Positions 11,760-44,111 of a DNA stretch of 49,379 nucleotides are shown here, one piece after another. The DNA comes from a virus (taxonomy: Duplodnaviria; Heunggongvirae; Uroviricota; Caudoviricetes). The notes beneath the pieces were generated by a model. It saw nothing but the letters and a program-made list of their open reading frames with translations, had not been told where the DNA came from and searched no databases. Numbering within the stretch: the stretch's first letter is position 1; every line of letters starts with the position of its first letter. The DNA is taken from positions 1 through 49,379 of the IMG/VR virus record IMGVR_UViG_3300028832_000101; one strand, written 5' to 3'. The translations under genes and the position numbers were made by a program.

Positions 11760-13517
11760 CTATTTCTTTGAAAAAAACATCATATCTGAAATATTTCTCT
11801 TTTTTCTTTTCTTTTTTCTATCTTCTTCTTGCTTAATATAATATAGTCCATATTCAAAAGCAGAAAACTTATCTTTAGGAATACTTCTACTAGATTGCTT
11901 CAATATAATATTTACACCTTCATTTTCTTCTACTAAATTAAGCATTTGTTCTCTTAAAATTGTAGTTAAAGTAAAAGGCATTAAAAATTCAGCACGTTTA
12001 TCCGCATCCATATTTTGTCCTACTTTTGTACTCATTAATTTTACTTTTGCTTGACCTTCGTCAATTAAGAATTTTATTTTACCACTAAATAATTGAGTTT
12101 GAACATAACTATGAGCTTCAGTATTTATTGGCGCATTTGCCTTAATTAAATACATAGCATTTTCTTCTACTCCAGGACCTTTTATTTTTTTATAAGGTTC
12201 TAAAATATCTTCAGCAGTTCCGCCTTCAACTCCAAATGGTGGTAGTTCTTCTCCTGTTTCTGGATCCATTTGACCTTTAGTCATAAAATCTACAAATCCA
12301 GCACCAAGACCATTCGCATCGATTGCAATTATCTTCGCTTTATATTTATAAAATAATTTTTTAACATTGATTGCTTGTTTTTCAAAATCTTCTGCTTCAT
12401 ATGAATATAAATTTACAAGAGTCTTCAAAGCAGCGCCTTGAACTTGCGGAGTTACTTTAAACACACAAACTTCGGTAGTACATTTAAAACGTCCAACATC
12501 GACTCCAAGTACATAATAAGCACTTTTGCTACTTCTCCCACTAAATTCATATTCTGGTTGTAATAATACTCTATGTTTATCAAATTTCTCTGCAGAGAAG
12601 AATGCATTTTCTGCATCTCCAGACCACTCTGATTCATATTCACGAGCAAAAGAACTATCATTATAAGTTCCATCTAATTTTAATTCTTCAATAAAAGATT
12701 TTTTCAACAAACCTTCAATTACTGGGACGCGCCAGGTTCCGCCTAGAACGACCGCTTCCGCAGGTTCAATTATTTGTTGGATAAGTATTTGTATTAATTT
12801 ATCATATGCAAAACTATTTTTTCATCCCGCAGTAGTTACATATATTTGAGATTTATTAACAGTTTCTTCTTCAATTCTTGTTCCATCCGCCAATCTTCGG
12901 TCAACGTTCATGGTTGGAATAATAACTTCATTTAATAATGTTTGGTCTATTAAGATACACTCTTCCATCAAACCTCCAGTAGCACGTTTACCACGGGAAC
13001 TTTGTTGAGCAGCCATAATATCTAATTTACTACCATTTTTAAATTTATATTCAACCATATTCTTACTTGCTTTTGTTTGACCTCTTGTCCAGTCAATTTC
13101 ATTTTTTAAACCTGGAATTAATTTACAAAGCTCTTCCGCTTTTTCTCTTGCTATTCCAGCAGCTTGTTCTTTTCCTCCAGTTGTAACGAATAAATGTGCG
13201 CCTGGGAAAAGTACACATCTTAACATTAAAATTAACACAGATAAGAAAGATTTTGAATAGGCACGAGGAAAGGTTGCATATGCATATCTATGACGCATTA
13301 CCGCCCTTAAGAATACTCTTTGATAAAAGAATAAACTAAAATTTTCAGGATTATTTTCTCCGCAAAGGAATTCCACAAACATATCAGGATATTCACGCCA
13401 AAAGGAAACATACTGTCTAATTATAGGTAAATTATCTTTTATTCTTTCTTCAGATATCCCTACTTTTTTTAGCATACTTTTATCTTTAGATAATTCCATT
13501 AAATCAGAAAGAGCCAT
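11760..13517 (-). CDS. terL: Terminase large subunit, 585 aa with one TGA read as Trp
   Basis: ATPase half (FPRAYSKS, GLMEE, YVTTAG) and nuclease half (GVDVGR, IAIDANGLG, KDKFSA) join through TGA at 12822-12824 (VTTAG-W-KNSFAY). Confidence 0.9.
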
Positions 13518-13518
13518 T

Positions 13519-14772
13519 TTATATCTCTCCTTCCTCATCAAGGCCGAATTCATTATTTTCTATTAAAATATTGTTATCTTGTTCTTTTTGTGCTTCAACT
13601 TCTTCCATGAATGCAGCATAATCTTCATCTTCAAGTTCTAATGCCCCATCTTGTGCTGCGGCCTCTGCCTCATTCATTTCTTTTTGAATTTGAATTTTCT
13701 TTAAAGCATCTTCTATTTGTTGTCCAAAACCTAAGTCTTGAGTAACTAATTTATGTAAATAATCATTCATATCTTTTAAAGTTAAATCAACTTTATCTTG
13801 TGGAATATCAGTTGCATATCTAGGAATAAATCCTTCTCTTTCACACATAGCAACTAATTCTCCAACGCTATCTACGAAATCATTTTTATCTTCTTTATTT
13901 TGAGCTGCTGTAAATTTAGCTGATTTTCTTAAACTTTCAGATACTCTTGATAATTTTTGATAACTATCAATATCTTCCATATCTAGAGCATGGTTCATTT
14001 TTAAATTTGTTTTACAAATTAGAATTAATGTATTAATTGTATCCGCATCTTGAATATCAAATGACTCTGTCATTTCATTATACATTCTTTCTAATTCAAC
14101 CCATTCTGAAGGTTTATAAAAACGACCTCATTTCATAACTAGATAAATTTTATCATCATCAGTTAAATCTGCACCTAAATCTACCATATCATCTTCGCTC
14201 ATATATTGAGAATCGTCTAATCCGATAGATCCTCCAACCATTGGAACTTGTCCTATTGGTTGACCTGGATTTACAAAATCTTGAGCAGGCATTTCCGCAT
14301 GTTTTGTTTCAGTTTGTGTTAAAGTTTTATATTCAGCTTCACTAATTTCTCCATTTTCAAATCTTTCTTTAGCTTCAGCTTCTCTTTCCGCAACTTCTTT
14401 TGCATGTTCTTCTGCTCTTGCCGCATATTCTTGTTGTAATCTTTCAGTGTCTTCCCAACCAAATTCGCGCCATTGTTTTAGTTTCATTTTAGATAAATAT
14501 CTACCAAAAACAGATTGACAAGTTAATTTGCTAGGGTCTTTTTCATAAATTCTATCTCTTAATGTATTTCATTCTTCAGGAATATAAGGAACATTCATCT
14601 TTTCTAATAACCATAGAAATGATTTCTCATCAAAATTATCAATGTGCATTGTCAAACATTTTTTACACATTTCAGTTTTCGTTCCATCTTTATAAGTGAA
14701 AAACTGATTTTCATCCATAGTCTTTCCGCATTTAGTACAATAATATCTTGGTTTCTCATTCATAATATTCAT
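13519..14772 (-). CDS. Packaging-region protein with N-terminal Zn ribbon, 417 aa with two TGA read as Trp (small terminase candidate)
   Basis: Three ORF fragments join in frame via TGA at 14569 and 14128 (YIPEE-W-NTL; LVMK-W-GRFYKPSEW); CxxC...CxxC at N-terminus; abuts terL. Confidence 0.75.
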
Positions 14773-38420: not shown

Positions 38421-38491
38421 TGTGAGCCTCAAGAATTGAACTTGACTTCTTCCTTTTTAGGAAGCGTGCTACCATTAACACTAAGTCCCAC
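38421..38491 (-). ncRNA. tRNA-like element with 6-nt anticodon loop, no CCA
   Basis: D arm GTGT/GCAC, CTTCC-TAAAAA-GGAAG, T arm TCAAG-TTCAATT-CTTGA. Confidence 0.6.
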
Positions 38492-38828: not shown

Positions 38829-39202
38829 TGGTGGACCCGAGGAGATTCGAACTCCTGTCCTAGTACTGCGTCATATATACTTACTTTCTTACAAGCTTAG
38901 TTGCATTTTAAAAACTCTATTTCTATTTATGCAACACTATTTGAAATAGGTCTTTACACATTAAATAAGATAATATGCCTGTAAAGAAACATATTAAATT
39001 TGTCCCTCTAGATAAGTCTACTATATTTTCACGAGGGTATTACTCATATAATAGTCGCCTACGCAAAAGATAATGCGTTTACAGTAAATAAAGATTTAAC
39101 TTTATTAGCGATTTTTGTTAAAATGTTGTCATTTAATATTTAAGTTTGTTTTGCTTGTTTCAATATATTGGCTACATCTAGTCGAAACCATAAAACGAGC
39201 CC
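38829..39202 (-). ncRNA. ssrA: tmRNA, tag (A)DNILTKIANKVKSLFTVNALSFA
   Basis: 5' GGGCTCGT..GGTTTCGAC, 3' T arm and GGGTCCACCA with G3.U pair; tag ORF 39130-39059 ends TAG. Confidence 0.92.
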
Positions 39203-40861: not shown

Positions 40862-40936
40862 TGGGGTGAAATAAGGGTTATGCTCCCCTGCATCCAGAGC
40901 CACAATCTGGCGTACTACTATTATACTAATTTCACC
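40862..40936 (-). tRNA. trnH: tRNA-His(GTG) with atypical T loop AGCATAA
   Basis: G-1:C73, loop TT GTG GC, CCA. Confidence 0.85.
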
Positions 40937-41578: not shown

Positions 41579-41824
41579 TTACCCCTTAATACCAAAATCT
41601 TTTATATCCTTTATTTGCTCGTCCATTATTTTCTTTTTTATTTTATATTTATTTATTCTATTACCTAGACACCATGGACATTGATTAGCCGCACCTCCGC
41701 GTCTACCTCCATGATTTCTACAAGTTCTATCAACAGACTTACAATAAGGTTGTCCTTTAGTACCATATTCTATTCTATGTTCTTTTCCCGATTTTATCGC
41801 TTTTACAAGAGACATAGTCTCCAC
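41579..41824 (-). CDS. Basic Cys/His-containing protein (CRNHGG..CPWC), 81 aa
   Basis: GGAGGTGG RBS; possible Zn site. Confidence 0.75.
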   Translation of the reverse strand: METMSLVKAIKSGKEHRIEYGTKGQPYCKSVDRTCRNHGGRRGGAANQCPWCLGNRINKYKIKKKIMDEQIKDIKDFGIKG

Positions 41825-41831
41825 CTCCTTA

Positions 41832-42086
41832 TTATGAGGCGGCTTCTACTATTTCATTTAATTTTGCTAAATTTTTTCTATATCTTCTTCCTGAGCCTTT
41901 TGGATGTGCGGCAGCGAATGCTTTTGCAGCTTCCATAATTTCTTGGCTTTTAGAAGTTAAATATTTAGAAGCTTGAGGATTTCTTCTTAACTTTTTATTA
42001 GTTTTTCCTTTTCTATCTAAATTAAATTGAGTTCTTTGATAATGTCCTTCACCTGTATGTGATGCACCTTTTCTTTTCTTTGCCAT
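41832..42086 (-). CDS. Very basic protein, 84 aa
   Basis: Own TTGACA promoter; RKGKTNKKL motif. Confidence 0.75.
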   Translation of the reverse strand: MAKKRKGASHTGEGHYQRTQFNLDRKGKTNKKLRRNPQASKYLTSKSQEIMEAAKAFAAAHPKGSGRRYRKNLAKLNEIVEAAS

Positions 42087-42161
42087 AATCCTTAACCTTC
42101 TTTCTTTTATTTTTCTATATATATTATATTATATTTTTTCTTTACTGTCAACAAAAATAAT

Positions 42162-42257
42162 TGGCAGGGGCTAAAGGATTCGAACCCTTACCTGGAGTTT
42201 TGGAGACCCCACTCTATGGTTTTGAAGACCACTGTGCTGCCTTTACACTAAGCCCCT
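42162..42257 (-). tRNA. trnW: tRNA-Trp body with two tandem anticodon arms: UCA (UGA-reading) and CCA
   Basis: AGGGGCT TA GTGT-AAAGGCA-GCAC A GTGGT-CTTCAAA-ACCAT AGAGT GGGGT-CTCCAAA-ACTCC AGGT AAGGG-TTCGAAT-CCTTT AGCCCCT G CCA. Confidence 0.85.
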
Positions 42258-42266
42258 ATATTAGTC

Positions 42267-42638
42267 CTACTTACTAGATAAGTAGAAACCTTCTTTATCA
42301 AAACCAACTGAATTACCTTCAGTTTCTAACCATTCTTCTAATGTTATATAATCATAAATATTAGGATAATCTACAATAGAAAGCGGTAATTCAAAATCTT
42401 TAATTAAAGTATTATAATTTCTCTTTATAAAATTAAGTAAAGTATCTTTTTGGTCTTCGTCTTTATCTATCATAATATCACTTTTTTTAGTTAATTCACT
42501 AAGAATATCAAAAGCGAATTCTTTCCAAAAACCATTTAATTCAAATAAAGAGATAATACTTAAATCATATTTATTAATATATAAAGTTTTCTTTTTTAAC
42601 CATTCTAATTCATAGTCATCTAATCTTTTAATTAACAT
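42267..42638 (-). CDS. Hypothetical protein, 123 aa
   Basis: GAAGGA RBS; lies between the two Trp tRNA genes. Confidence 0.7.
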   Translation of the reverse strand: MLIKRLDDYELEWLKKKTLYINKYDLSIISLFELNGFWKEFAFDILSELTKKSDIMIDKDEDQKDTLLNFIKRNYNTLIKDFELPLSIVDYPNIYDYITLEEWLETEGNSVGFDKEGFYLSSK

Positions 42639-42657
42639 ATTATTCCTTCTTTCAAAA

Positions 42658-42731
42658 TGGCAGGGCGACAAGGATTTGAACCCTGATACACAGTTTTGGA
42701 GACTGTAGTCCTACCATTGGACGATCGCCCT
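42658..42731 (-). tRNA. trnW: tRNA-Trp(CCA), canonical
   Basis: A1-U72, loop CT CCA AA, G73, CCA. Confidence 0.93.
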
Positions 42732-42734
42732 ATA

Positions 42735-42825
42735 TGGCGCTCACTAGAGGATTCGAACCTCTGTGTCGATCGCTCGGCCTAACTGTTTAGTAGACAGTCC
42801 TCTTCACCAACTTGAGTAAGTGAGC
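42735..42825 (-). tRNA. trnS: tRNA-Ser(ACT), rare A34 anticodon
   Basis: ACTGT-CT ACT AA-ACAGT, long variable arm, G73, CCA. Confidence 0.88.
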
Positions 42826-43748: not shown

Positions 43749-43802
43749 TTCTTTCTTATAAATATTATATAATAATTTTATAAAAAAGTAAAATAAGATA
43801 TA

Positions 43803-44032
43803 AAAATGGCAATTTATTGAGCAATTTTATGCCTTAGGTCAAGTAGATTTTCTCCGTGAATTACAGTCCGTTACCAGATCCGCGCTTTCGCTTTAAAACT
43901 CCGACATGGGGTTACCCCTCATATGACTTGATTACCACTTAGTACATACTGTAATCTCAATAAATATCGCTCTAGAAGTTTTCCTTCACAATAATTTGTG
44001 TATATAACTAGAATAGCGTGCCATTATAAATA
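43803..44032 (-). ncRNA. Candidate pseudoknotted ncRNA, about 230 nt
   Basis: Perfect helices 43956-65/43812-21, 43948-55/43860-67 and 43926-31/43839-44; the last two cross. Confidence 0.55.
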
Positions 44033-44037
44033 AAAAC

Positions 44038-44111
44038 TGGAGCGGGTAGTCGGATTTGAACCGGCGTTATCTGCTTGGAAGGCAGAAGTCCTACCACTGA
44101 ACGATACCCGC
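44038..44111 (-). tRNA. trnG: tRNA-Gly(TCC)
   Basis: Loop CT TCC AA, U73, CCA. Confidence 0.93.

Follow-up and report, generated by a model that had tools for sequence, protein, structure and literature searches.

Phage recoding of stop codons with the help of suppressor tRNAs is already known, as are tRNAs with long variable arms, tRNAs with odd cloverleaves, and anticodon mimics that recruit aminoacyl-tRNA synthetases. The closest described relatives of the tRNA considered here are the phage opal suppressors, which carry a UCA anticodon, are encoded in tRNA-rich parts of the genome, and serve late structural genes in which TGA stands for tryptophan; a host synthetase is presumed to charge them (Borges et al., 10.1101/2021.08.26.457843; PMC12636597). 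How host synthetases charge phage suppressors was left open by Borges et al. (10.1101/2021.08.26.457843), and PMC12636597 likewise leaves open the way in which host TrpRS accepts these tRNAs. Standard tRNA finders recover UGA suppressors in only 35% of the TGA-recoded phages (Borges et al., 10.1101/2021.08.26.457843). Thirty-one phage UCA tRNAs are covered by PMC12636597, and all 13 that were assayed in an E. coli extract inserted tryptophan. Some phages bring a tryptophanyl-tRNA synthetase (TrpRS) of their own, as in the "code-change modules" of the Jade phages and in the AP1 and HF2 pairs (10.1101/2021.08.26.457843; PMC12636597).

Several other RNAs resemble this tRNA in part. The acceptor identity set of bacterial tRNA-Trp comprises G73, A1-U72, and G2-C71 to G5-C68 (PMC9976931). 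The type-II tRNAs (Ser, Leu, bacterial Tyr, and Sec) have a long paired variable arm between the anticodon and T arms, with loops of 3-5 arbitrary nt. Among these, tRNA-Sec has an acceptor stem longer than the canonical 7 bp and bears a tetraloop on its long D stem (PMC5389517), and the allo-tRNAs combine acceptor and T stems in an 8/4 or 9/3 arrangement (Mukai et al. 2017, PMC5389517). Finally, hairpins with an anticodon loop are placed elsewhere in an RNA to bind a synthetase in the E. coli thrS operator, in yeast aaRS mRNAs, and in the BMV TLS-Tyr (PMC9976931; 10.1101/2023.07.08.548219). No tRNA bearing an additional arm that resembles an anticodon arm was found described in the literature searched.

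The tRNA lies in a window of 49,379 nucleotides, the whole stretch of DNA that was analysed, which opens an IMG/VR virus record of 136,493 bp with a completeness estimate of 91%. Its parts, and the ordinary tRNA-Trp gene near it, are as follows.

42162..42257 (-): the whole double-arm tRNA, an opal suppressor of Trp type, 96 nt (ARAGORN, Rfam tRNA model, fold)
42251..42257 (-): acceptor 5' strand AGGGGCU, with its partner strand AGCCCCU at 42166-42172 (fold and covariation)
42234..42248 (-): D arm, a 4-bp stem GUGU/GCAC with the 7-nt loop AAAGGCA (sequence, fold, family alignment)
42216..42232 (-): decoding arm GUGGU-CUUCAAA-ACCAU (ARAGORN, Rfam alignment)
42223-42225 (-): anticodon UCA (ARAGORN, which puts the anticodon at position 33)
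42212..42215 (-): inter-arm linker AGAG, 4-6 nt across the window-type subfamily
42193..42211 (-): second arm UGGGGU-CUCCAAA-ACUCCA, in the variable-arm position, with a 6-bp stem (sequence, fold, covariation)
42201-42203 (-): CCA of the second loop
42190..42192 (-): linker GGU preceding the T stem, conserved as (N)GGU across the window-type subfamily
42173..42189 (-): T arm AAGGG-UUCGAAU-CCUUU (sequence, fold, family alignment)
42165 (-): discriminator G73
42162-42164 (-): encoded 3' CCA
42658..42731 (-): canonical phage tRNA-Trp(CCA), 74 nt, loop CUCCAAA, 400 nt upstream of the double-arm tRNA on the same strand (ARAGORN, Rfam)

Read along the minus strand, the gene is AGGGGCU-UA-GUGU-AAAGGCA-GCAC-A-GUGGU-CUUCAAA-ACCAU-AGAG-UGGGGU-CUCCAAA-ACUCCA-GGU-AAGGG-UUCGAAU-CCUUU-AGCCCCU-G-CCA. 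Between the D and T arms stand two tandem hairpins of 5 and 6 bp, with the 7-nt loops CUUCAAA (UCA) and CUCCAAA (CCA), and the two units of arm plus linker are identical at 16 of 22 positions. The second arm is a copy of a tRNA-Trp anticodon stem-loop. By linear count the arm in the anticodon position presents UCA as U33-C34-A35, with CCA restricted to the variable-arm hairpin. The acceptor stem has seven pairs, A1-U72, G2-C71, G3-C70, G4-C69, G5-C68, C6-G67, and U7-A66. The Rfam tRNA model, whose gathering score is 29, gives the gene 56.6 bits. In its alignment the UCA hairpin takes the place of the anticodon arm and the CCA hairpin is handled as inserted sequence within the variable region, a preference that arises only because the model permits insertions there. 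All five hairpins form in the minimum-energy fold, whose energy z-score of -0.75 carries no information, as is common with tRNAs. The first-pass annotation had described a 96-nt gene with a 7-bp acceptor stem, a 4-bp D stem, a T arm, and two tandem arms, and every detail is borne out by the sequence, ARAGORN, and the fold; it was equally right in placing a canonical tRNA-Trp(CCA) 400 nt away, and in calling this the sole UCA anticodon of the window, a statement that extends to the entire 136,493-bp record (a single UCA tRNA in 136 kb).

The comparison with the described systems places this tRNA near several of them. It shares A1-U72, G2-C71 to G5-C68, and G73 with bacterial tRNA-Trp(CCA), which makes it the Trp-type tRNA it had been taken for, and its second arm bears the CUCCAAA loop of the phage's own tRNA-Trp(CCA); it differs in having UCA at the decoding position, a length of 96 nt, and five helices rather than four. 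With the type-II tRNAs it shares the long paired variable arm, which is why ARAGORN labels 42162-42257 a 96-nt 'tRNA-SeC (tca)', but the loop of this arm is a 7-nt copy of an anticodon loop, and the UCA anticodon, the Trp-type acceptor, and linkers of 4 and 3 nt separate it from the Ser, Leu, and Tyr members. Its 7/5 acceptor/T geometry differs from that of the allo-tRNAs and of tRNA-Sec, and its 4-bp D stem and 7-nt D loop set it further apart from the latter. To the anticodon mimics there is a likeness of principle; those are non-decoding elements of mRNAs or viral genomes, whereas here the mimic would sit inside a decoding tRNA, a matter of resemblance and not of membership. With the phage opal suppressors it has in common the UCA anticodon, the tRNA-rich setting, a host synthetase as the presumed charger, and late structural genes in which TGA means Trp, but a second anticodon-like arm is described in neither account of them (10.1101/2021.08.26.457843; PMC12636597).

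The surrounding array encodes 24 tRNAs and a tmRNA according to ARAGORN. The double-arm tRNA starts 9 nt past the stop of the upstream ORF and, given this spacing, is probably co-transcribed with it. Directly downstream is a near-consensus sigma-70-type promoter (TTGACA, 17 nt, TATAAT; about 42115-42150 (-)), which precedes an 84-aa basic ORF at 41832-42086; this ORF and the two others beside the tRNA (42267-42671 and 41579-41824) gave no match in Pfam or PHROGs. A 91-nt tRNA-Ser with the called anticodon ACU, at 42735-42825 (-), directly adjoins the tRNA-Trp(CCA) gene, and similar ACU-anticodon Ser tRNAs were found in related loci; an ACU anticodon with an unmodified A34 is unusual for bacteria. 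Rfam tRNA matches at 40865-40935 (-) (50.1 bits) and 38422-38490 (-) (32.9 bits), both unreported by ARAGORN, may be further, atypical tRNA genes. The tmRNA lies within the array at 38829-39202 (-) and has the tag peptide ANKVKSLFTVNALSFA (ARAGORN; Rfam 58 bits). Directly downstream of a tRNA-Gly gene, the 3' half of an OLE RNA is matched at 43790-44040 (-) (Rfam RF01071, 129 bits, E 1e-35, model positions about 380-616 of 616), a truncated copy that is unexpected in a phage tRNA array. OLE RNA is a feature of extremophilic and anaerobic Firmicutes, and the fragment hints at a Firmicute host.

Several lines of evidence speak to the meaning of TGA in this phage. Over the whole record, the open frames of at least 100 aa grow from a total of 38,006 aa to 51,542 aa when TGA is read as sense, against 43,891 aa when TAG is so read. 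With TGA as sense, the 85-135 kb region resolves into frames of 956, 831, 1218, 1477, 1311, and 2754 aa, with up to 14 TGA codons each, and these fused frames encode tail, fibre, and receptor-binding proteins; in-frame codons in the 85-136 kb region number about 95 TGA versus 121 TGG. One of the products, a tail protein with a LamG domain, is encoded with 14 TGA and 2 TGG codons. Across 120 full-length homologues, its 14 TGA columns hold W in 913 of 1296 non-gap cells (70%), and four conserved TGA columns are about 100% W against a background of 2.2%; some of these homologues may have been predicted with code 4, but the conserved Trp columns and the matches in the PDB (4qvs and 5hon, with W at two of the TGA positions) are independent of such calls.

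Recoding extends to the window itself, as this gene shows:

11760..13553 (-): large terminase gene with one in-frame TGA, codon 244, at 12822-12824

The PHROG terminase match covers residues 44-448 of this product and spans the TGA, and the presence of that codon in frame marks TGA as a sense codon for the phage. Two further families, phrog_15503 (residues 28-248) and phrog_24618 (residues 365-593), fit the two halves of the product on either side of the TGA and are probably artefacts that arose when recoded genes were predicted with the standard code. In related records, TerL homologues have 2-6 in-frame TGA codons in 8 of 13 cases, and all three LamG homologues contain them, with 4-11 each. 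Judged by these frames and columns, the phage reads TGA as tryptophan. No gene of the TrpRS/TyrRS family and no release-factor gene of the RF-1 family was found in the phage record. Since the double-arm tRNA is the sole UCA tRNA of such a genome, and TGA there means Trp, it is best regarded as the phage's UGA decoder, with tryptophan as its amino acid.

The double arm is not confined to this phage. A first scan of IMG/VR used a pattern that required both loops, UCA and CCA, and returned 106 stretches, with both stems paired in 44 of the 109 matches examined. Because this pattern forces CCA, a second scan was run that left the second loop unspecified and fixed the UCA arm (GGTCTTCAAAACC) and the T loop, with a long gap between them, matches being classified by ARAGORN and hairpin checks. 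It gave 74 distinct UCA sequences with a long variable region, some 45 of them with UCCA in the loop of the variable arm, in the forms CUCCAAA, GUCCAAA, and UUCCAAC and in 9-nt loops such as CUUCCAAAA. The remainder were tRNA-Sec-like (G1, short variable-arm loops) or chance coding matches, and no Trp-type long-arm UCA tRNA without the UCCA motif was seen among the 74. Together the two scans yielded 52 distinct UCA tRNAs of double-arm form, located on independent viral contigs, all with UCCA, 36 with a 7-nt loop, and with stems of 4-8 bp; both censuses use fixed patterns and are not complete counts, and the members are related, so that sequences do not equal independent events. As a control, 114 other long tRNAs from the same loci were examined, and 6 of them have TCCA in the variable region, compared with 52 of 67 UCA tRNAs.

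The pattern of change within the family indicates what is being kept. In an alignment of 27 sequences, 95.9% of cells are paired and both sides change in 23 of 27 pairs, a level of covariation reached by none of 500 shuffles and nowhere near approached by slid controls. Compensatory changes occur in every one of the five helices, with covariation at 7 of 7 acceptor pairs and 4 of 5 pairs of the decoding arm; in the second arm both sides change at all six pairs, which agrees with the earlier suggestion that the two arms are independently paired. The stem of the second arm varies freely and its UCCAA is constant, the C, the A, and their neighbours being invariant or nearly so. About a third of members begin the second loop with G, at a place where tRNAs usually have C or U (position 32). 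G73 is invariant in all 27 aligned members.

The UCCA loop motif is found on two tRNA scaffolds. The first, that of the window, combines a class-I-like D arm with linkers of 4-6 and 3-4 nt, its T stem being preceded by (N)GGU; the second has a D stem of 5-6 bp and short linkers of 0-3 nt, with UCCA retained. The terminases of the carriers are 50-83% identical to that of the window in some cases and about 32% identical in others, and in others again there is no detectable match. In bacterial genome collections there were seven true double-arm matches, among them contigs from bins assigned to Coriobacteriia, Bacillota, Parabacteroides, and Gemmiger. An isolate, Bacteroides neonati MS4 (NZ_HG726020.1, L230:2950-3043 (-)), contributes one of the seven; its tRNA has the loop GUCCAAA on the long-D-stem scaffold and adjoins a DDE transposase and a fragment of the terminase large subunit that contains an in-frame TGA. 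This cultured strain thus probably carries the decayed remains of a recoded prophage at the locus. By blastn against 50,697 GenBank phage records, the 96-nt tRNA gave no match, and a 4-kb query matched only ordinary tRNAs. Taken as a whole, the alignments and scans indicate that the double-arm design is old and widespread, and that purifying selection maintains it on both scaffolds and in several phage lineages. An evolutionary intermediate of recoding, as one early suggestion had it, is contradicted by a conserved design present in 52 sequences, several lineages, and two scaffolds. The further idea that one arm might be excised, or might switch the code on and off, finds no support, no single-arm allele having been found at the site; in bacteria, we know of no short-intron machinery.

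Two other sets of tRNAs deserve mention beside this family. In a different group of viral contigs there are tRNA-Trp(CCA) genes of 86-88 nt with a short extra arm, GGCG-GUAA-CGCC, in the variable region (L015:3603-3688, L025:2646-2731, L060:1307-1392, and others). A scan for a glutamine analogue, in the form of CUA suppressors with a CUG- or UUG-loop variable arm, returned 30 stretches, nearly all of them chance coding matches, and no such family was found with that pattern; within this narrow pattern the double-arm design therefore looks Trp-specific. One ambiguous case is the lone CUA (amber) tRNA at L331:11874-11968 (-), called tRNA-Pyl by ARAGORN, whose variable arm CCUGUU-CUG-AGCAGG has a 3-nt loop with the Gln anticodon CUG; this arm may be the glutamine version of such a second arm, or a coincidence.

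Besides the acceptor stem and G73, the CCA anticodon is the other major identity element for TrpRS, and a tRNA that reads UGA must give it up. The reading that we favour, with a probability of roughly 60%, is that this tRNA-Trp acts as an opal suppressor and uses its variable arm to present the CCA identity element to the host TrpRS. The UCA arm would read UGA and so permit the translation of late genes full of in-frame TGA, and the CCA of the second loop would be shown to the host enzyme in place of the element lost when C34 became U. With this CCA, the Trp-type acceptor stem, and G73, the suppressor would be charged with tryptophan by the host TrpRS. We infer that TrpRS reads the second loop, and likewise how the arms are placed in charging and decoding. 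The first-pass annotation had proposed just such a pair, a CCA arm recruiting TrpRS and a UCA arm decoding: the decoding half stands, the tRNA being the sole UCA tRNA of a recoded phage in which the TGA columns are Trp, and the recruitment half is at present the reading that best fits the conservation of the loop and the missing phage TrpRS gene.

The distribution of TrpRS genes can be set beside this proposal. None was found in the 40 other double-arm records, 13 of which are at least 90% complete, and this record and those 40 differ in that respect from the Jade, AP1, and HF2 phages. Among 20 records with a plain class-I UCA tRNA, three have a TrpRS gene, in one case together with the tRNA gene on a single 23-kb record, which matches the Jade, AP1, and HF2 pattern; 17 have no detectable phage TrpRS, many of these records being fragments. 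The contrast of 0/40 with 3/20 is small and not phylogenetically independent, and is consistent with the proposal but weak.

The alternative that survives best, though we think it unlikely, is that the tRNA is a UGA-to-Trp suppressor whose second arm goes unread by TrpRS, charging proceeding through the acceptor stem and G73 with UCA tolerated. The UCCAAA hairpin might then be there for a modification enzyme (MiaA, for instance) or for some factor of the phage or the host; it might also help the tRNA to compete with RF2 on the ribosome, shield it from an anticodon nuclease, or stabilise its fold. Geometry speaks for this, as the variable arm of an ordinary L-shaped tRNA differs in its placement from the anticodon arm and points elsewhere, so that for TrpRS to recognise the second loop, either the tRNA would have to dock at a tilt or its arms would have to change places. 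Armless class-I UCA tRNAs occur in phages, mostly without a phage TrpRS, E. coli enzymes often charge phage UCA tRNAs with tryptophan (PMC12636597), and tryptophanylation of TGA suppressors in E. coli is cited by Borges et al. (10.1101/2021.08.26.457843); because the 13 tested phage UCA tRNAs all inserted tryptophan, the additional arm is not strictly required. What weighs on the other side is the identity of the conserved letters, which are exactly U33 to A38 of the Trp anticodon loop, held in a 7-nt loop on a stem of anticodon length. The motif is moreover tied to Trp-type acceptors and absent from tRNA-Sec and from the variable arms of Ser, Leu, and Tyr tRNAs. We know of no alternative partner that needs the sequence of a UCCAAA hairpin, and this too counts against an arm that TrpRS ignores.

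A different proposal gives the tRNA two legs, the UCA arm reading the codon and a second, swappable CCA arm being read by the synthetase, with a possible exchange of the legs under the D stem. This we consider doubtful, and somewhat more doubtful still is its fuller version, in which the form with CCA under the D stem is charged as tRNA-Trp and might read UGG and the form with UCA there reads UGA. The tandem layout lends itself to an exchange, since a unit of arm plus a 4-5-nt linker occurs twice and the hairpins share one hinge; in the window-type subfamily the 3' linker (N)GGU, directly before the T stem, has the length of a class-I variable loop, and the arms are similar in length, with stem ends that are nearly identical (GGU...ACC) in many members. 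The second scaffold fits such an exchange poorly, its linkers of 0-3 nt being typical of an ordinary variable arm, yet UCCA is kept. The phage also has a normal tRNA-Trp(CCA) of its own, which makes UGG reading by the double-arm tRNA unnecessary. To our knowledge no natural tRNA has a hairpin between positions 26 and 27, a further count against the swap.

That the tRNA is of Sec or Ser type and inserts one of these residues at UGA is very improbable, in spite of the ARAGORN label tRNA-SeC and of the long variable arm and G73, both of which SerRS uses (PMC5389517). The 7/5 bp acceptor/T arrangement, the 4-bp D stem with its 7-nt loop, and the A1-U72 first pair all disagree with it, and the true tRNA-Sec sequences from the same scan start with G and have no UCCA loop. 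The TGA columns are Trp in homologues, and some 95 in-frame TGA codons in late genes are far too many for SECIS-dependent insertion of Sec; on the Trp columns, the 7/5 geometry, and the number of TGA codons, Ser or Sec insertion was excluded.

An assembly artefact merging UCA and CCA alleles, or a recent and inert duplication or pseudogene, has a negligible chance of being the explanation, for although the two units are 16/22 identical and this contig is known here from assembly alone, the double arm recurs as a conserved, covarying design (52 versions from independent metagenome assemblies plus one isolate genome, stems diverging by compensatory changes around fixed loops, and the sole UCA tRNA in a phage that needs one), which disposes of a merger, a pseudogene, and a transient intermediate alike.

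A conserved spare CCA arm offers a concrete and testable answer to how the suppressors of recoded phages are charged in a host that uses the standard code, and the Bacteroides neonati MS4 copy provides a cultured starting point for experiments. The double arm may also help explain the 35% detection rate of suppressors, because ARAGORN mislabels this tRNA as tRNA-Sec. If the proposal of a synthetase handle is true, a recognition element for a synthetase has been kept but moved off the decoding position, which would be a new principle of tRNA identity and would supply a ready-made design for engineered suppressor tRNAs. Should the more doubtful two-legged reading hold, the two tasks of the anticodon would be divided between two arms of one natural tRNA, and a virus would have a general trick for recoding a standard-code cell by RNA alone, without a synthetase of its own.
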